Positions 713 through 17,387 of a DNA stretch of 20,000 nt are shown here, one piece after another. Source of the stretch: an uncultured virus (IMG/VR IMGVR_UViG_3300022555_000014) (Duplodnaviria > Heunggongvirae > Uroviricota > Caudoviricetes); the IMG/VR virus record IMGVR_UViG_3300022555_000014. One strand, given 5' to 3'. Within the stretch, counting starts at the first letter, position 1. Every line of letters starts with the position of its first letter. Below the pieces are notes generated by a model. The model searched no databases and had not been told where the DNA came from. It worked only from the letters and a program-made list of their open reading frames with translations. A program made the translations under genes and the position numbers.

Positions 713-877
713 AAAACCCTCCTAGGTGGGCAAATCCACCTAGGAGGGTTTTTTGATTCTACCAACTCTCACCAACCCTTTCCCGCGTGACCGACTCAGG
801 ATCGACTCGTCACCCACTAGGGCATTAGTGAGAGTTTAGCGGTTAGGAAGTGGAGGGTACGAACTCTCACTAATGCC
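713..877. repeat. Intergenic structured repeat, copy 1
   Basis: Hairpin AAAACCCTCCTAGGTGG-gcaaat-CCACCTAGGAGGGTTTT, then core AACTCTCACCAACCC..GTGACCGACTCAGGATCGACTCGTCAC..TTAGTGAGAGTT, then AACTCTCACTAATGCC. Confidence 0.95.
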
Positions 878-975
878 TGAGTTTGGTTGTGAGACTACGC
901 GAGATACGGTGTGCGGTTAAAAAATCCTTGGTTTTTCAAGCGTTATAAAGTTTTTGGCTGTAAGTCAAAAAGTAG

Positions 976-1004
976 TTGCTTTTTGAAAATAAGTGGGATA
1001 AACT
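976..1004 (+). promoter_or_regulatory. sigma70-type promoter
   Basis: TTGCTT-17 bp-TAAACT upstream of ATG 1052. Confidence 0.6.
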
Positions 1005-1051
1005 GAGTAGGCAGGGAAATCCTGGCAAACACACATAGAAGGAAAACGATC

Positions 1052-1477
1052 ATGGCTGCACAAGCTAAAGTGACCCCCGTCCAGACCTTGGAACAGACTG
1101 TAGCCTCTTACCTGGGAAAGAGTGTAGTACTCTCTGACGGTAAGGTTGGCGTCATAAAGTCTTATGATGACGTTCGTGGACTTCTTTCGGTAGTGCTGGG
1201 CGCCTACCGTCCGAGGCTCATTCCTTTGACTTCTTTGACCCGTGTCAAGGATGAAATTACTGAAGTCGCTTCCAAGAAAGTGATGGACATTGATCCGCCG
1301 ACCAAGTCCAAAAAGTCTATCAAGGTAAGTGAACAGGCTAACTCGGCAATTTCAGCCGAAGCTCTTGTACGCGTGTTCAGTGAGTATTCAGCGGCAGTGG
1401 AACTCGCCAAGTCTACCGCCCAAGCCAAACTCGCCCAACTCGGTATCACTACTCCAATTGACTGGAGCAACGTTTAA
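1052..1477 (+). CDS. Hypothetical protein with N-terminal SH3/KOW-like domain; paralog of 8843..9253
   Basis: SD GAAGGA; YLGKSVVLSDGKVGVIKSYDDVRGLLSVVLGAYRPRLIPL aligns with YLGNHIKMADGTLGTLKTFYPDRGVVSVVTGPHRPKLIPI. Confidence 0.85.
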   Translation: MAAQAKVTPVQTLEQTVASYLGKSVVLSDGKVGVIKSYDDVRGLLSVVLGAYRPRLIPLTSLTRVKDEITEVASKKVMDIDPPTKSKKSIKVSEQANSAISAEALVRVFSEYSAAVELAKSTAQAKLAQLGITTPIDWSNV

Positions 1478-1637
1478 CTCTCACTAACCCCTAGGTGGAC
1501 AATCCACCTAGGGGTTTTCTCGATTCCAACTCTCACCAACCCCTTCCCGCGTGACCGACTCAGGATCGACTCGTCACCCACTAGGGCATTAGTGAGAGTT
1601 TAGCGGTTAGGATGTGAGGGTACGAACTCTCACCAAC
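1476..1637. repeat. Intergenic structured repeat, copy 2
   Basis: Same terminator and core as copy 1; extra AACTCTCAC overlaps the stop codon. Confidence 0.95.
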
Positions 1638-1681
1638 GTCGGTTTTCAGGATGGGGTGCCTTCCCAACTACCTTTGGTGTG

Positions 1682-1824
1682 CGTGTCCTACGAATCTTTT
1701 TGGTTGTCGGTGCATTTTCCTGTTGACTCTGAGAAACAGGGGTGCTATTCTAAAATGGCGGAAGGGGTTGATCTTCTCCCCATCCAAACCAAACACACAT
1801 AGAAGGAAAACGATCATGGCTGCT
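1682..1824 (+). promoter_or_regulatory. Shared promoter-leader block A (sigma70 promoter, leader, SD, ATGGCTGCT)
   Basis: TTGACT(1723)-17 bp-TATTCT(1746) with extended TG; 143 bp identical to 3356-3498. Confidence 0.9.
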
Positions 1825-2190
1825 CCCAAGACTGGCAAGTCCGCTTCTAAGGCTCCCGCCGCTACTGCCGCCGAAGCTCCTAAGAAGAGCGGTGGTACGC
1901 TCACCCTCACCTGCGACTCAACTCGCAAGCAAGCTGTTGGGCTGAACATGACGGTGTATCCAGCCATCAACTCCAAAGGTGATGATCGCTTGGTTATCGT
2001 GATTGACCCAAGCAAAATCGGTAAGGAGTCCAGCACTGGTAAGAGTTTGCAAGTTGCTAACACGGGTGGGTGGACGATTTTGGAACAGTTTGAACGCTTC
2101 AAGATCACCGGCTCTCTCATTCAGGTCAAAGAAAAGGCTTCCAAAAAGGAAGTGGTTGCTGATGACGATGATGATGACTCAGACGACTAA
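1816..2190 (+). CDS. Hypothetical protein (124 aa) with Lys/Ala-rich N-terminus and acidic tail
   Basis: Start reassigned from 1651 to the SD-preceded ATG 1816 (MAAPKTGK...DDDDDDSDD). Confidence 0.85.
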   Translation: MAAPKTGKSASKAPAATAAEAPKKSGGTLTLTCDSTRKQAVGLNMTVYPAINSKGDDRLVIVIDPSKIGKESSTGKSLQVANTGGWTILEQFERFKITGSLIQVKEKASKKEVVADDDDDDSDD

Positions 2191-2201
2191 TCTGAAATAA
2201 C

Positions 2202-2358
2202 AAAACCCCTAGGTGGACGGTCCACCTAGGGGTTTTCTGATTCGACCAACTCTCACCAACCCCCTTCCCACGTGACCGACTCAGGCTCGACTCGTCACCT
2301 ACTAGGCCATTAGTGAGAGTTGAGCGGTTAGGAGGTGATGGTACGAACTCTCACCAAC
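2202..2358. repeat. Intergenic structured repeat, copy 3
   Basis: Terminator loop CGG; core has a few substitutions. Confidence 0.95.
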
Positions 2359-2408
2359 GTCGGTTTTCAGGATGGTTATCTTGGTGTCAGGATGGGTATC
2401 TTGGTGTA

Positions 2409-2567
2409 CGTGTCCTACGAATCTTTTTGGTTGTCGGTGCATTTTCCTGTTGACTCTGAGAAACAGGGGTGCTATTCTAAAATGGCGGAAGGGGTTGATC
2501 TTCCAAACCAAACACACGTTGATCTTCCAAACCAAACACACATAGAAGGAAAACGATCATGGCTGCT
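2409..2567 (+). promoter_or_regulatory. Shared promoter-leader block B
   Basis: TTGACT(2450)-17 bp-TATTCT(2473); same as block A except a short deletion and a 24-bp tandem duplication (2494-2541). Confidence 0.9.
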
Positions 2568-3167
2568 TTTTCAGAAACAGAAGTCACCACTTTCCTGAAA
2601 ACTCAAGGTGTAATTGGCATGTGTTTGCCTGTTACAGTTTGCTCTACAAGGACGAGTTCAAACTCCACTATAACATATTTGAGTAATGTACTTAATGGAG
2701 CGGAAGTACAGGTACAGTTAGGGACTGGTACTAAAGCTGTAAGTGCTAGCAGACTCTTTGGTTCAGAGTGTGAAGGTTTTGACGGCTTAAAGAGTTTGGA
2801 TGTATACCGTAGCGTTTTAGACCAGTCTTTACTGATAGGTAAAATTTTCAGTTCTATAACTCAGACAAGTTGGACTTTATATTCACTCATGAGGATGCTT
2901 AAGGACCACCCTCTTAACGAAGGCAGGTTCCTTGTACTTAAAGCAACTCTCTCTAAAGTTGACAGAAAGTTTGCTTACTACGACGAAGACTATGACCTGA
3001 CTTCAACGTATGGCCTAACTATTACTGGTGGTTACCTAGTAGAAACTCCTATAAAGGAGTTTTTAACACAAGGTACTTATACTAGGACCTTTGAAAACGT
3101 GGAAATTTTCACGAATAGGGAAAAATTCGAGGCTAAGCTAGCCTTAGAATCAGAGGATAGTGACTGA
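2559..3167 (+). CDS. Hypothetical protein (202 aa); close paralog of 3490..4089
   Basis: SD plus ATG; long blocks identical to the paralog, e.g. SETEVTTFLKTQGVIGMCLPV and LTITGGYLVETPIKEFLTQGTYTRTFE. Confidence 0.85.
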   Translation: MAAFSETEVTTFLKTQGVIGMCLPVTVCSTRTSSNSTITYLSNVLNGAEVQVQLGTGTKAVSASRLFGSECEGFDGLKSLDVYRSVLDQSLLIGKIFSSITQTSWTLYSLMRMLKDHPLNEGRFLVLKATLSKVDRKFAYYDEDYDLTSTYGLTITGGYLVETPIKEFLTQGTYTRTFENVEIFTNREKFEAKLALESEDSD

Positions 3168-3178
3168 TCTGAAATAAC

Positions 3179-3297
3179 AAAACCCCTAGGTGGACTGTCC
3201 ACCTAGGGGTTTTTTGATTCGACCAACTCTCACCAACCCCTTCCCGCGTGACCGACTCAGGATCGACTCGTCACCCACTAGGGCCTTAGTGAGAGTT
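3179..3297. repeat. Intergenic structured repeat, copy 4 (distal part deleted)
   Basis: Terminator loop CTG plus core; the segment between two CGGTT pentamers present in copies 2 and 3 is missing. Confidence 0.95.
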
Positions 3298-3355
3298 GAG
3301 CGGTTTTCAGGATGAAAGTACACTATCAACTGCCTTCCCAACTGCCTTTGGTGTA

Positions 3356-3498
3356 CGTGTCCTACGAATCTTTTTGGTTGTCGGTGCATTTTCCTGTTGA
3401 CTCTGAGAAACAGGGGTGCTATTCTAAAATGGCGGAAGGGGTTGATCTTCTCCCCATCCAAACCAAACACACATAGAAGGAAAACGATCATGGCTGCT
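3356..3498 (+). promoter_or_regulatory. Shared promoter-leader block C
   Basis: TTGACT(3397)-17 bp-TATTCT(3420); identical to 1682-1824. Confidence 0.9.
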
Positions 3499-4089
3499 TT
3501 TTCAGAAGCTCCTCTTTCAGAAACAGAAGTCACCACTTTCCTGAAAACCCAAGGTGTAATTGGCATGTGTTTGCCTGTTAAAGTTTGCTCTACAAAGACG
3601 AGTTCGCCGAACTCCACTGTAGGGTATTTGGGTTATCTACTTAATGGAGCAGCGGAAGTACAGGTACAGTTAGGTACTGGTACTGAATATGTGAGTAAAG
3701 AAAGACTCTTTGGTTCAGAGTTAGAGGATGAAGGTGAGGATGAAGGTTTTGGTGACTTAAATAGTTTGGATGTGTACCGTAGCCTTTTAGACCAGTCTTT
3801 ACTGATAGGTAAAATTTTCAGTACTCTAACTCGGGCAAGTTGGGCTTTATACTCATTCATGGTGATGCTTAAGGACCGCCCTCTTAACGAAGGCAAGTTC
3901 CTTGTACTTAAAGCAACTTTCTCTAGAGTTAAAAGAAAGTTTTACTACAACGAAGGCTATGATCTGATCTCAAAGTACGACCTAACTATTACTGGTGGTT
4001 ACCTAGTAGAAACTCCTATAAAGGAGTTTTTAACACAAGGTACTTACACTAGGACCTTTGAATCCCTGGAAATGGACATGAGAGAATAG
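3490..4089 (+). CDS. Hypothetical protein (199 aa); close paralog of 2559..3167
   Basis: Start reassigned to the SD-preceded ATG 3490. Confidence 0.85.
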   Translation: MAAFSEAPLSETEVTTFLKTQGVIGMCLPVKVCSTKTSSPNSTVGYLGYLLNGAAEVQVQLGTGTEYVSKERLFGSELEDEGEDEGFGDLNSLDVYRSLLDQSLLIGKIFSTLTRASWALYSFMVMLKDRPLNEGKFLVLKATFSRVKRKFYYNEGYDLISKYDLTITGGYLVETPIKEFLTQGTYTRTFESLEMDMRE

Positions 4090-4107
4090 CGACTAATCTG
4101 AAATAAC

Positions 4108-4263
4108 AAAACCCCTAGGTGGACAATCCACCTAGGGGTTTTTTGATTCTACCAACTCTCACCAACCCTTTCCCGCGTGACCGACTCAGGATCGACTCGT
4201 CACCCACTAGGGCCTTAGTGAGAGTTTAGCGGTTAGGCTGTGAGGGTACGAACTCTCACCAAC
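4108..4263. repeat. Intergenic structured repeat, copy 5
   Basis: Terminator loop CAA, core, and third AACTCTCAC motif. Confidence 0.95.
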
Positions 4264-4292
4264 GTCGGTTTCGGTAAGGTACGATAATCAAA

Positions 4293-4308
4293 CGTTCCAC
4301 GTGAAACA
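4293..4308. promoter_or_regulatory. parS: Chromosomal-type parS site
   Basis: CGTTCCACGTGAAACA differs from consensus TGTTNCACGTGAAACA only at the first base; intergenic. Confidence 0.75.
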
Positions 4309-4369
4309 CTTGCTTTTGTTGGGGTTTAGCAGGAATTCAGCGGTGTTTCAAAAATTTTCCAAAAACCTC

Positions 4370-4398
4370 TTGACTCCTGGCAACGCCTATTGTATCAT
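4370..4398 (+). promoter_or_regulatory. sigma70-type promoter
   Basis: TTGACT-17 bp-TATCAT with A/T-rich upstream tract. Confidence 0.8.
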
Positions 4399-4464
4399 TG
4401 GGTACAGGCTACTGGTGGATAGCAGCCGGTCCCTTCAACTCCCCAATTAAACAGGAGCGACATT

Positions 4465-4845
4465 ATGCGAAACGAACTCACCCTTCCTACCGGAGAAACA
4501 GCCATCATCGTGGGTGGTGACGCTGATCGGGTTTACCTTAGAGTACCTGGGAAGACTCGTGGTACACCACGTGCTGTTAACAAGACGGAGTTGGTTGCTA
4601 GGATTAACGTTCTCGGTCAGCCTATCCGTCTGTCTAGCGGCGACGTAGGCGAGATTGTTGGGATTGACGCCAACCGGTTGCTTGTCCGTGTCCATGGGAA
4701 GACTCGTGGTACACCGAGAGTTGTTAACGTGGAAAAGGTGCGTGTACGCTTTTCCAAAAAGAACTGGAGCTTGAAACAGTACACTAGGAAGGCAGCGAAC
4801 ACTTTTACTTTCACCCCGTTCCTCATGCAATCGTTGTCTGCTTAA
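4465..4845 (+). CDS. Hypothetical protein with two tandem SH3/KOW-like repeats
   Basis: SD AGGAG; GKTRGTPR occurs twice within repeated ~45 aa units. Confidence 0.85.
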   Translation: MRNELTLPTGETAIIVGGDADRVYLRVPGKTRGTPRAVNKTELVARINVLGQPIRLSSGDVGEIVGIDANRLLVRVHGKTRGTPRVVNVEKVRVRFSKKNWSLKQYTRKAANTFTFTPFLMQSLSA

Positions 4846-4852
4846 CAACAAA

Positions 4853-4888
4853 AGTGTTGGTGTAGTAAACGTTTACTACACCAACACT
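4853..4888. repeat. Perfect 36-bp palindrome
   Basis: AGTGTTGGTGTAGTAAAC|GTTTACTACACCAACACT. Confidence 0.9.
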
Positions 4889-4905
4889 AACCTAGGAGAA
4901 CGGTC

Positions 4906-5142
4906 ATGGCTTCAGTATCCAAGGACTACATTTTGTATTCCAAACTCTCTCTGGCTATGAGGGATTTGTTCAGCCAAGGGTTTGAGATCAACTCCGGAGG
5001 AAGAGTTGACATGTGGGTGCAGAAATGTGGTAAGGGTTACGACATAACTGCCAGAATAGAACCTTGTGAGCATGATATCAGCAAGGGTGCAGTTAGAGTT
5101 TCTATCCTGGTAAACAACCCTGTAGAGCAACGGGTTAGCTGA
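4906..5142 (+). CDS. Hypothetical protein (78 aa)
   Basis: SD AGGAG; operon context. Confidence 0.75.
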   Translation: MASVSKDYILYSKLSLAMRDLFSQGFEINSGGRVDMWVQKCGKGYDITARIEPCEHDISKGAVRVSILVNNPVEQRVS

Positions 5143-5154
5143 GGAGTTGGTATC

Positions 5155-5538
5155 ATGGCTACGATGACTATGCTGGCAGAGTCTAATGTTATCACCTCTT
5201 TTGATAACCGCCGTCTAGACCGACTTATTAACGAGAAAGGCGCGTCAAACAAACTAACAGATGTTGACTATGTTCTATGCCGACTCTACTTGCAGGGGTT
5301 TCCTGTGAGGGAAATCCTGGATAATCTCTATCCAGGAGATGACGATGGCTCGGACGACGACGATGCTGATGACGACTCGGAAGAGGAAGACTTTACCGTT
5401 CGGCATTTGGCATCGGCTCTCAAAGAGTTGCCTGTAAACGTCAAGCACGCCGTTGCCCATCTAATCTTTCTGGTGGAAAATGACGGTGAATTGGAAGAGG
5501 ATGACGATCCTGAAGAAGACCGAGACGTTGACGACTGA
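5155..5538 (+). CDS. Highly acidic hypothetical protein
   Basis: SD GAGGAG; two Asp/Glu tracts. Confidence 0.85.
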   Translation: MATMTMLAESNVITSFDNRRLDRLINEKGASNKLTDVDYVLCRLYLQGFPVREILDNLYPGDDDGSDDDDADDDSEEEDFTVRHLASALKELPVNVKHAVAHLIFLVENDGELEEDDDPEEDRDVDD

Positions 5539-5662
5539 ACTCTCATTAACCCCTAGGTGGACAATCCACCTAGGGGTTTTCTCGATTCCAACTCTCACCA
5601 ACCCTTTCCCGCGTGACCGACTCAGGATCGACTCGTCACCCACTAGGGCCTTAGTGAGAGTT
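5538..5662. repeat. Intergenic structured repeat, copy 6
   Basis: 5' flank like copy 2; homology stops right after GTGAGAGTT. Confidence 0.95.
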
Positions 5663-5725: not shown

Positions 5726-5755
5726 TTGACAGCCAGAAACGATGTGTGGTAAGGT
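5726..5755 (+). promoter_or_regulatory. sigma70-type promoter
   Basis: TTGACA-18 bp-TAAGGT with extended TG. Confidence 0.6.
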
Positions 5756-5804
5756 TGGACTACCAGATTTCCCTGGTCTACCCAATCGGAATAGGTGTGC
5801 CATC

Positions 5805-6071
5805 ATGAAAACCATCCTTGACGAACTCAACAACGGCTACGCTATTGCCAAGGACGTTATTGCCGTGGTGATTAACAAGCGGGGACGCAGGATTAGTCAA
5901 GAGGTAGTTCAGTACCAATTACTAAACAAGGATAACACGGTGATCAACTCTTACCCGTCCTATCAAGACGCGCTGGAAAAAGGTATGGGTTTCGTGTATG
6001 ACCGGCTGCCCCGAGGTGGTCAGGCGTTCATGCCAAGGAAACATGCCGCTGCCGAACACTTGTTTGCCTAG
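5805..6071 (+). CDS. Hypothetical protein (88 aa); probable distant paralog of 7806..8042
   Basis: Start reassigned to ATG 5805 (MKTILDEL); YQLLNKDNTVINSY resembles YELVNSENVVLRTY. Confidence 0.75.
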   Translation: MKTILDELNNGYAIAKDVIAVVINKRGRRISQEVVQYQLLNKDNTVINSYPSYQDALEKGMGFVYDRLPRGGQAFMPRKHAAAEHLFA

Positions 6072-6414: not shown

Positions 6415-6443
6415 AGGGTGTGGTGGACAGTCCACCACACCCT
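6415..6443. terminator. Stem-loop with the same GGTGGA-NNN-TCCACC apex as the repeat terminators
   Basis: AGGGTGTGGTGGA-cag-TCCACCACACCCT; no U-tract. Confidence 0.55.
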
Positions 6444-9265: not shown

Positions 9266-9307
9266 AAAAGTGAGTGTCATATTTAATTAAATATGACACT
9301 CACTTTT
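9266..9307. terminator. Perfect 42-bp palindrome, probable bidirectional terminator
   Basis: AAAAGTGAGTGTCATATTTAA|TTAAATATGACACTCACTTTT. Confidence 0.75.
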
Positions 9308-9508: not shown

Positions 9509-9537
9509 TTGACTTCCCGGTTTTAACCTGTTATCAT
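9509..9537 (+). promoter_or_regulatory. sigma70-type promoter
   Basis: TTGACT-17 bp-TATCAT, extended TG, A/T-rich upstream region. Confidence 0.8.
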
Positions 9538-9606: not shown

Positions 9607-10458
9607 ATGGCTAAGAAGAGCAAGGAAATTGAAGTCGTTGAAGTTGACGAAGATGAAGACGATGACAACACCAGTGAATCTGGTGAAGGCTTTGCTACCG
9701 AGGCTGACGTTGTTGCTGACTCTGAAGACGGTCTAGACGCTAAGTTGATCGTCATTAACATTCTCAATGAATGTGAAGACTCAGTAGCCATGAACTTGGC
9801 GTCGTTTCTAGCTTCTATCTTCGGTGATGACGACGGAGAGTCAGGCGAAGATGAAGATGAAGATGAAGATGACGACGACTCTGATGACGAAGATTCAGAC
9901 GACGAAGAGGATGAGGACGACGACTCTTCTGATGACTCGGACGACGAAGACGAAGACGACGATTCGGATGATGAAGAGTCAGACGACGAAGATTCTGATG
10001 ATGACTCGGACGACGAAGACGACGACTCTGATGATGAAGAGTCAGACGATGATGACGATGACGAGCCTGTAAAGCCTGCTGCTAAGAAGGGTGCTGCTAA
10101 GGCTCCTCCGGCTAAGGCACCAGCCAAGGCTGCCAAGGCAGAACCGGCCAAGCCCGCTAAGGCGGCTAAGGCAGAACCGGCTCCAAAGGGTCTTTCTGTT
10201 GAAGAGAAGGCAGAGAAGCTCACTAAGCTTAACATCGAATTTAAGACTGCTAAGAAGCAGTCGGTTCAGGAAGCGAACATTACTAATCGCTTTGCTGAAT
10301 GGGAAACCTTCGCTAAGAAGCATGAAGGTAAGTCTTTTGAACAGGTTCAAAAGCTGCTCACTAAGGCAGGAGTAGAGCCCTCTTACGGTCGTGGTCGTAA
10401 GTCTGACGACACTAAGAAGGAAATCGCCTTGGCAGCACTGTTTAACCAGCAAGCGTAA
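9607..10458 (+). CDS. Protein with long Asp/Glu tract, Lys/Ala/Pro linker and C-terminal helical GRGRK domain
   Basis: SD AGGAG; composition read from the translation; C-domain shared with 11215 and 14758. Confidence 0.9.
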   Translation: MAKKSKEIEVVEVDEDEDDDNTSESGEGFATEADVVADSEDGLDAKLIVINILNECEDSVAMNLASFLASIFGDDDGESGEDEDEDEDDDDSDDEDSDDEEDEDDDSSDDSDDEDEDDDSDDEESDDEDSDDDSDDEDDDSDDEESDDDDDDEPVKPAAKKGAAKAPPAKAPAKAAKAEPAKPAKAAKAEPAPKGLSVEEKAEKLTKLNIEFKTAKKQSVQEANITNRFAEWETFAKKHEGKSFEQVQKLLTKAGVEPSYGRGRKSDDTKKEIALAALFNQQA

Positions 10459-11680: not shown

Positions 11681-11710
11681 AAAACCGGTTGGAAATTCCC
11701 AACCGGTTTT
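11681..11710. terminator. Bidirectional terminator followed by a relic of the repeat core
   Basis: AAAACCGGTTGG/CCAACCGGTTTT, then TTCGACCAACTCTCAC. Confidence 0.75.
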
Positions 11711-11780
11711 CGTCGTTTCGACCAACTCTCACTATCAACGACTCGAAGAAAACCGTTGATTTTCCTGAGAGATTTTCCAC

Positions 11781-11810
11781 TTGACATCAGATAATCGGTT
11801 GTGATATAAT
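11781..11810 (+). promoter_or_regulatory. Consensus sigma70 promoter
   Basis: TTGACA-18 bp-TATAAT with extended TG. Confidence 0.85.
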
Positions 11811-12626: not shown

Positions 12627-13181
12627 ATGGACGTGTACAAAAACTTCTCTGAAATCCCGCAATTGACCAAAGGAGCACCTTATAAGGTAAACATGGCTTG
12701 GGATTATATAGAGGACTGGTTACGCCTTGAAAACGAGACAGCTAAAGGGTACTCCATTGACTTGGATCCAAGTTTCCAGAGAGTTCATGTTTGGGACGAC
12801 GTGCGAAGGGTACGCTATGTTGAGTACATCTTACGTGGCGGTTTAAGTGGCAAGGATTTGTACTTCAACCACCCTAATTGGATGAGTTCTTTCAAAGGTA
12901 CCTTAGTTCTTGTTGACGGTAAGCAAAGGCTAGAGGCTGTAAGAAAATTCATGAATAACGAAATACCAGCTTTTGGAACACTACTAAAGGACTACTCTGG
13001 TAGATTGCCTATGATGAAATGTGATTTCATAGTCAACGTTAACAATCTGAAAACCACAGCGGAGGTGTTACAGTGGTATATTGATTTGAACGCTGGTGGG
13101 GTTGCTCACACTGATGGAGAGATAGAGAAGGTGAGAGTCATGTTGAAAAAGGAAACTTTGAAATCCAAGAGGAAGGAGTAA
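12627..13181 (+). CDS. DUF262 (ParB/Srx-like fold) domain protein
   Basis: LDPSFQRVHVWD and LVDGKQRL motifs; C-terminal YIDLNAGG. Confidence 0.85.
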   Translation: MDVYKNFSEIPQLTKGAPYKVNMAWDYIEDWLRLENETAKGYSIDLDPSFQRVHVWDDVRRVRYVEYILRGGLSGKDLYFNHPNWMSSFKGTLVLVDGKQRLEAVRKFMNNEIPAFGTLLKDYSGRLPMMKCDFIVNVNNLKTTAEVLQWYIDLNAGGVAHTDGEIEKVRVMLKKETLKSKRKE

Positions 13182-17348: not shown

Positions 17349-17387
17349 AAAGAACCTTTTGACTCACCGGAGTCAAAAGGTTCTTTT
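17349..17387 (+). terminator. Rho-independent terminator
   Basis: AAAGAACCTTTTGACTC/GAGTCAAAAGGTTCTTT. Confidence 0.8.

Follow-up and report, generated by a model that had tools for sequence, protein, structure and literature searches.

The first 5.7 kb of a 20-kb stretch of DNA from an uncultured phage (Caudoviricetes; IMG/VR record IMGVR_UViG_3300022555_000014), hereafter the window, to whose positions all coordinates refer, carry a row of small genes separated by a recurring sequence module. The row starts directly after a gene for a 454-amino-acid (aa) protein, itself preceded by a gene for a 945-aa protein with a calpain-type protease domain. Between positions 713 and 5662, the module is present in six same-direction copies of 125 to 165 bp, starting at 713, 1476, 2202, 3179, 4108, and 5538. 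Direct-repeat search, alignment, and pattern matching all give this layout, and the copies and starts given by the original prediction, which was made from the sequence alone, proved correct. Every copy begins at, or a few bases from, the stop codon of the upstream gene, as had also been proposed. The copies recur in direct orientation at intervals of 0.7 to 1.4 kb and delimit six early units, all of them confined to this part of the window. A 27-nucleotide (nt) core occurs once per module, at 787, 1551, 2272, 3248, 4177, and 5613, on the plus strand only, and is absent from the rest of the 20 kb (chance expectation, 0).

Each module is a composite of an intrinsic terminator hairpin, with 14 to 18 pairs and a T run, and a near-invariant imperfect hairpin of 73 nt (74 nt in copy 3) with 12-nt arms, which starts 13 to 15 nt past the last G of the terminator stem. 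Copy 1, which like all copies is on the plus strand, opens with an 18-pair terminator stem and its T run (713 to 752) directly after the stop codon of the 454-aa gene, followed by the 73-nt hairpin (764 to 836) and a second hairpin with arms at 816 to 836 and 862 to 882. Copy 2 (1476 to 1633) has an arm motif at the stop codon (1476 to 1487), the terminator at 1486 to 1516, the 73-nt hairpin at 1528 to 1600, and a second hairpin reaching to about 1633. Copies 3, 4, and 5 have bidirectional terminators: that of copy 3 (2202 to 2352) lies at 2202 to 2236 and is followed by the hairpin at 2248 to 2321 and a second hairpin, that of copy 4 (3179 to 3297) lies at 3179 to 3213 and is followed by the hairpin at 3225 to 3297 with no second one, and that of copy 5 (4108 to 4257) lies at 4108 to 4142 and is followed by the hairpin at 4154 to 4226 and a second one. 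Copy 6 (5538 to 5662) again has an arm motif at the stop codon (5538 to 5549), with the terminator at 5548 to 5578 and the hairpin at 5590 to 5662. Wherever it is present (copies 1, 2, 3, and 5), the second hairpin re-uses the right arm of the 73-nt hairpin. The distance from the 73-nt hairpin to the next promoter varies from 64 to 144 nt, whereas its offset from the terminator is fixed, indicating that it belongs with the terminator. The right half of the 73-nt hairpin repeats the arm and the left half of the terminator in inverted form, and the arms of the second hairpin in copy 1 extend to 21 nt, which suggests that the palindromic complex grew by inverted duplication.

Related pieces occur farther along the window. 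A partial seventh module lies on the plus strand at 11681 to 11810. Its similar part (11681 to 11739) consists of a different bidirectional terminator hairpin and a 16-mer (spacer plus arm) identical to that of copies 3 and 4, with the arm motif at 11724 behind this unrelated terminator; a promoter follows at 11781 to 11810, the only perfect consensus in the window (TTGACA, 18 nt, TATAAT, with TG). At 6415 to 6443, a terminator-like hairpin has the inner 15 nt of the stem-loop as in the array terminators and different outer pairs, which suggests that the phage prefers one hairpin core. The terminator palindrome also gave 2 matches in an unrelated AT-rich phage, which were judged to be chance.

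Promoters, leaders, and cargo of the six units

Downstream of each module come a sigma-70-type promoter, a leader that carries a strong ribosome site, and the cargo, either a single gene or an operon of three, in keeping with what had been described from the sequence. Four of the promoters were listed by the scan, while those of units 1 and 6 (976 and 5726) were identified by eye, that of unit 1 being below the scan threshold. Unit 1 has a weak sigma-70-like promoter (976 to 1004; TTGCTT, 17 nt, TAAACT) with its leader next (1026 to 1059) and then open reading frame (ORF) ORF1052 (1052 to 1477; 141 aa). In unit 2, a promoter/leader block (1682 to 1824) with a TTGACT-17-TATTCT promoter at 1723 to 1751 precedes ORF1816 (1816 to 2190; 124 aa with an acidic tail). 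The promoter region of unit 3 (2367 to 2541) combines the same type of promoter (2450 to 2478) with two perfect or near-perfect local tandem duplications, one of 20 nt (twice, 2367 to 2407) and one of 24 nt (twice, 2494 to 2541), and precedes ORF2559 (2559 to 3167; 202 aa). ORF3490 in unit 4 (3490 to 4089; 199 aa) is likewise preceded by TTGACT-17-TATTCT (3397 to 3425). Unit 5 has a TTGACT-17-TATCAT promoter (4370 to 4398) and a three-gene operon (4465 to 5538) of ORF4465, which contains two small repeats, ORF4906, and ORF5155 (29% D+E). Unit 6 (5726 to 6071) has a promoter that reads TTGACA, 18 nt, TAAGGT and encodes ORF5805 (88 aa). All of these features are on the plus strand.

The leader that ORF1052 had been said to share with other units is real: 34 nt are 100% identical in four units (1026, 1790, 2533, and 3464). 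On the plus strand, promoters of the TTGACT-17 type number 41 through the window versus 22.5 expected, and since they continue past the array, host RNA polymerase seems to drive the whole region. Two perfect inverted repeats, of 21 nt (9266 to 9307) and 17 nt (17349 to 17386), lie in intergenic DNA upstream of two such promoters at 9509 and 17435, and both give weak, sub-threshold Rfam matches on both strands.

None of the 8 cargo ORFs matched a Pfam, PHROG, or NCBIfam family, and for ORF2559 and ORF1816 only proteins of the same phage were matched among 5.8 billion. ORF2559 and ORF3490 are tandem paralogs with 74% identity over 196 aa (E 8e-94), which makes this portion of the array a tandem duplication rather than a series of unrelated cargo. 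The original prediction missed this relationship: it had treated the cargo as unrelated, which is right for ORF1816 but not for the other two of its three cargo types. Over 186 codons, the paralogs have a synonymous divergence (dS) of 0.109 and a nonsynonymous divergence (dN) of 0.129, and this dN/dS ratio of 1.18 indicates relaxed or diversifying selection. The common 3' end that had been noted for ORF1816, ORF2559, and ORF3490 exists as well, except that ORF3490 itself stops at a TAG (4087 to 4089) 7 nt ahead of the TAA in the shared block.

The remaining cargo gives few leads. ORF4465 consists of two copies of a unit of about 35 aa and has three weak matches among 1.84 billion representatives; a 684-aa relative (P0038) has eight such units and weak PRC-barrel-type matches, a weak hint of a PRC-barrel-like repeat. 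Residues 20 to 68 of ORF1052, which belongs to no known family, resemble residues 104 to 152 of ORF8744 (41%, E 1e-11), and the similarity between ORF1052 and ORF4465 reaches only E 0.15. Some of the seemingly unrelated cargo may have a common small barrel domain. The AlphaFold2 model of ORF2559, at a mean predicted local distance difference test score of 31, is unusable.

Signs of exchange among copies and a recombination-based reading

Several features of the units point to exchange. The promoter/leader block of unit 2 (1682 to 1824) is identical over 143 nt, through ATGGCTGCT, to positions 3356 to 3498 of unit 4, and the two genes behind it, ORF1816 and ORF3490, have no protein similarity, both as the original prediction had it. 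The promoter block of ORF3490 shares 95% identity with the block ahead of the unrelated ORF1816, with these 143 nt exact, versus 87% with that of its own paralog ORF2559, and ORF1816 sits between the same flanks as the paralogs. The parts of the units also assort independently: terminator plus hairpin are present in all six, the second hairpin in four, the promoter block in three, and the leader in four, and unit 1 combines the common leader with a different promoter. We take this as evidence for regulatory blocks having been exchanged independently of the cargo.

Traces of rearrangement are seen within the modules and genes, too. In the alignment of the six repeat copies, the column pairs 85/112, 112/157, and 157/170 each show all four allele combinations, which requires recombination or recurrent mutation. 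The gap in place of the second hairpin in copy 4 is bordered by short CGGTT repeats and looks like a deletion between them. Other assemblies hold two hybrid proteins: P0001 joins the body of ORF2559 to the end of ORF3490 (one 17.4-kb contig), and P0005 joins the body of ORF3490 to the tail of ORF2559 (3 contigs of ≤2.3 kb). They match the reciprocal pair expected of unequal crossing-over between tandem paralogs but could be assembly chimeras. In run X6, one low-depth contig has copy 2 with three letters switched to the copy 5 states.

Our preferred reading, to which we give a probability of about 0.6, sees in the array six consecutive, self-contained immediate-early units, set off by the recurring terminator-hairpin module, which doubles as homology for general recombination, much like the promoter/stem-loop (PeSL) units of T4-type phages. 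The terminator would insulate each transcription unit, and the repeated modules, leaders, and promoter blocks would supply stretches of homology for general recombination or replication template switching. Predicted outcomes are deletions and tandem duplications, hybrid genes, gene conversion between copies, and the swapping of cargo precisely at the module borders, none of which would call for a dedicated recombinase. Family scans covered the 33 ORFs of the window and 5 ORFs upstream, about 25 kb in all, and found no recombinase family, tyrosine and serine recombinases included, extending upstream what had been reported for the window.

The PeSL analogy drawn by the original prediction fits the architecture. 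In the two papers that describe them, PeSLs are units of a sigma-70 promoter and a stem-loop terminator that occupy the gap from the stop codon of one gene to the ATG of the following gene; they flank ORFans in hyperplastic regions and recombine with one another to give indels, replacements, and mini-circles (PMC2839356, PMC4122927). Measured against that description, the terminator and sigma-70-type promoter of the array likewise fill the space from stop to ATG in all six units, the flanked cargo likewise consists of ORFans, here small genes with no known homologs, and the array units would, as PeSLs do, offer transcriptional insulation together with homology for insertion, deletion, and replacement. 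There are also differences. In the PeSLs so described, the stem-loop lies between or over the −35 and −10 elements with an AT-rich stretch upstream, whereas the array terminator lies 150 to 220 bp before the −35 element; the array module is much longer, with units of about 300 to 370 bp from stop to ATG, and adds the near-invariant 73-nt hairpin; and the hosts of PeSLs are T4-type phages, whereas no T4 core gene is found among the 38 ORFs scanned here. The array is best classed as a PeSL-like variant, not as a member of the PeSLs. Repeated intergenic sequence classes with a regulatory function are also known from halovirus HF2, whose promoter-carrying repeats of 58 and 29 bp contain AT-rich archaeal promoter elements; as far as the available text of that report describes them, they are not terminator-hairpin composites, unlike the array (PMC8707807).

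The array is held by 8 DNA runs from lake or freshwater metagenomes of 3 studies, none of them recorded as RNA. The read-level check used assembled Logan contigs of 4 runs from the 3 studies, in which each repeat is a break point and rare variants are lost. These independent contigs reproduce the junctions between unique sequence and repeats, with no differences but the 3 letters in the X6 contig, so that the repeats are not an assembly artefact, an alternative that the original prediction had itself raised. The contig data thus show the array to be real and its majority form to be stable, while rare rearranged forms are invisible to contigs. The depth of the unique pieces gave no consistent copy-number signal in these data, and two loose ends in run X4 (2368 and 5504) are each a single AT-rich contig. 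Exact cargo proteins are found on 10 to 27 public contigs, the longest of 254,081 bp, and the phage may be a jumbo phage with a genome possibly larger than 250 kb. The 41.9-kb metagenome contig from which the window comes would then be a fragment of it; the window is the reverse complement of the first 20 kb of this contig.

A number of observations weigh against the recombination-based reading. The population looks near-clonal, the contigs of the 4 runs from 3 studies being identical save the 3 letters, and a strain variant (P0015) of the 454-aa protein upstream of the array being identical at 453 of 454 residues. No repeat-to-repeat joints or indels are listed in the contigs of the 4 runs, where rare forms are invisible. 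Where the hybrids switch from one paralog to the other, the two genes are identical over a run of about 62 bases, and P0001 and P0005 could be assembly chimeras; so could the copy 2 variant, given that depth in X6 is low and patchy. The 2 to 12% divergence among repeat copies is not far below the paralog dS of 0.11, so their conservation may partly reflect recent duplication. No T4 core gene was seen among the 38 ORFs scanned, and the better folding of the bottom strand of the 73-nt hairpin (see below) is not accounted for by an accessory to a plus-strand terminator.

No relative whose different cargo order would document shuffling between genomes was found in the collections searched either. 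A DNA query of 8 kb had no match among INPHARED phages. The core 27-mer had 0 matches in the viral contig collection and in 185,579 species genomes, among metagenome contigs it matched only the window's own source contig, and a looser arm pattern had 0 matches; the search for the repeat in related phages that the original prediction had proposed thus returned no copy beyond the source contig. Locus searches with the 454-aa upstream protein and ORF2559 gave no usable relative. For ORF6969, the best-conserved neighbouring gene, the nearest non-self homolog is 44% identical, and none of 80 loci drawn from its family alignment contained a second window protein or any array DNA. With respect to the earlier idea of a system that captures, duplicates, and exchanges early genes, then, duplication is supported by the tandem paralogs and exchange by the regulatory blocks and the putative hybrid paralogs elsewhere, but a more elaborate, actively gene-capturing system is not supported: no recombinase was seen in the 25 kb, no relative with different cargo was found, and no joints appeared in the contigs of the 4 runs, which do not show rare forms.

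The 73-nt hairpin and other explanations of the array

The alternative that survives best, although we consider it unlikely, gives the 73-nt hairpin a chiefly regulatory role at the RNA level, with recombination among copies as a by-product. The element would be either a processing or stabilising site in read-through polycistronic early RNA or the body of a minus-strand small RNA of about 130 nt ending at the bidirectional terminator. Folding argues for such an element. A 181-nt module folds beyond shuffled sequences on both strands (z of −5.85 on the plus strand and −5.56 on the minus strand), and the RNA of the 73-nt element forms 28 to 29 pairs on the minus strand, including 3 to 4 G·U pairs, with a free energy of −33.3 to −37.3 kcal/mol, versus 21 to 23 pairs, no G·U pair, and −21.8 to −25.2 kcal/mol on the plus strand. 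Every wobble position favours the bottom strand, whose fold has single-base bulges; since these positions are common to all copies, they represent at most four or five events, and the bias is suggestive only. In 4 of the 6 copies, moreover, two alternative pairings are open to the arm motif. One pair shows a compensatory change from G-C to A-U (copy 3) and one is changed on a single side, but 25 of 28 pairs are invariant across the six copies and the covariation is not significant, as a score at least this high arises in 115 of 500 shuffles, so that it neither supports nor refutes the structure.

Other observations speak mostly against such an RNA. The terminators of copies 3, 4, and 5 score as terminators on the minus strand also, but copies 2 and 6 have no T run there. 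No conserved minus-strand sigma-70 promoter was found, the single minus-strand site being near copy 5, and only copies 1 and 5 have an extended −10-like site, seen by eye, that faces the terminator. A plus-strand transcript would meet the strong terminator before the hairpin, and little RNA should contain it. No Rfam family was matched, the hits being sub-threshold chance matches (His_leader at 27 to 28 bits versus a gathering threshold of 49, and NsiR1 on the terminator). The early genes of phage T7 have RNase III processing sites between them and are read as a single transcript that lacks terminators and promoters of its own inside. T7 and the array have in common that long, irregular hairpins related to one another recur in the gaps between their early genes, but each array unit has its own terminator and promoter. 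A possible likeness of the minus-strand arm motif to the promoter core of the T7 group was dropped: the motif does not stand ahead of other genes, and the scans of the 25 kb showed no RNA polymerase family of the single-subunit type.

Less probable still is an explanation in which the 12-nt arm motif is the binding site of a phage or host protein involved in early shut-off, in a roadblock behind the terminator, or in genome organisation. The frequency of the motif agrees with this: allowing one mismatch, it occurs 18 times in the array, 3 to 4 times per module and in both orientations, compared with 0.37 expected in the whole window. The arms are also unchanged in all copies while the loops vary, and the motif recurs behind the unrelated terminator of the partial seventh module. 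However, the family library scans found no DNA-binding family among the array proteins, strand-asymmetric folding is not expected of a double-stranded site, and the compensatory change fits a folded strand better.

A site-specific cassette system, in which an unseen recombinase recognises the folded bottom-strand hairpin as in the attC sites of integrons, appears very improbable. According to Larouche and Roy 2011 (PMC3053210), attC sites span 57 to 141 bp and are bounded by an RYYYAAC inverse core and a GTTRRRY core. By that description, several features agree: an imperfect palindrome of 73 nt, within the size range, stands directly 3' of each gene in one orientation, cargo borders are exact, and the bottom strand folds better, with DNA z scores versus shuffles of −4.2 and −4.9 in copies 3 and 5, against −1.8 and −2.1 for the plus strand. 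Yet none of the 6 copies has the inverse core at its left arm, and 2 of 6 have the core where the right arm ends. The active form of an attC site is a folded bottom strand with two extrahelical bases on one side; the bottom-strand fold of the array hairpin has single-base bulges. Array units have their own promoters, whereas integron cassettes are mostly promoterless and read from a common promoter. No integrase and no tyrosine or serine recombinase was seen among the 38 ORFs scanned, and the breakpoints among copies are spread over several places instead of marking a single crossover point. Least credible of all is a selfish, nonautonomous element inserted behind terminators, similar to a miniature inverted-repeat transposable element: a discrete, sharply bordered unit that ends in inverted arms of 12 nt would suit it, above all in copies 2 and 6, where an arm also ahead of the terminator creates a 125-bp unit bounded by inverted arms, but there is no target-site duplication at the arm borders, the copies all point the same way within a single 5-kb stretch, none occurs in the 185,579 species genomes or the viral collection, and the terminator belongs to the conserved unit.

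What the 73-nt hairpin itself does is a narrower question, on which no answer reaches even odds. The leading candidate is a structure that acts on read-through transcripts, as a second RNA barrier or in their processing, and next comes a DNA hairpin or cruciform that promotes exchanges, still a tentative choice. An array of protein-binding sites is rather unlikely, the body of a minus-strand RNA is doubtful, and least expected among these is a hairpin with no function of its own. More specifically, the hairpin might be active as a folded bottom single strand, either as an attC-like site of cassette exchange with no known integrase or attC signature or as the body of six minus-strand small RNAs ending at the bidirectional terminators. 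We regard this as a long shot, but either version would add a new kind of element to those described from the early regions of phages.

Genomic setting and significance

The surroundings of the array mark the window as phage DNA, with Pfam or PHROG matches to Bro-N/anti-repressor, metallophosphoesterase, DUF7336, phrog_1915, and GmrSD_N. The last of these is a 184-aa protein among the early genes (12627 to 13181) with the N-terminal domain of the GmrSD restriction endonuclease (PF03235, E 7e-9; phrog_1583, E 5e-20). Farther upstream than the 454-aa gene, the 945-aa protein is encoded on the minus strand about 1 to 4 kb before window position 1 (L005:7583-10420); it matches Pfam Peptidase_C2 (E 1e-20) and no PHROG or NCBIfam family. 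The early region contains a further duplicated domain, in ORF9607 (9607 to 10458; 283 aa), which has a D/E/S-rich low-complexity stretch (9826 to 10056) followed by a K/A/P-rich stretch, and whose C-terminal 60 aa match part of ORF14737 (14737 to 15408) with 90% identity.

If the six units are indeed bounded by modules that double as homology for general recombination, the repeated-cassette shuffling known from T4-type coliphages and vibriophages would also operate in an unrelated, abundant freshwater phage lineage. It would act there on fast-evolving orphan early genes, with a dN/dS of about 1.2 for one paralog pair; genes of this type usually deal with taking over the host and with defence. 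A concrete and testable oddity of the system is presented by the conserved second hairpin and its bottom-strand bias. The array is compact and present in public lake metagenomes of three studies, so the predicted deletion and triplication products should be countable in long reads.

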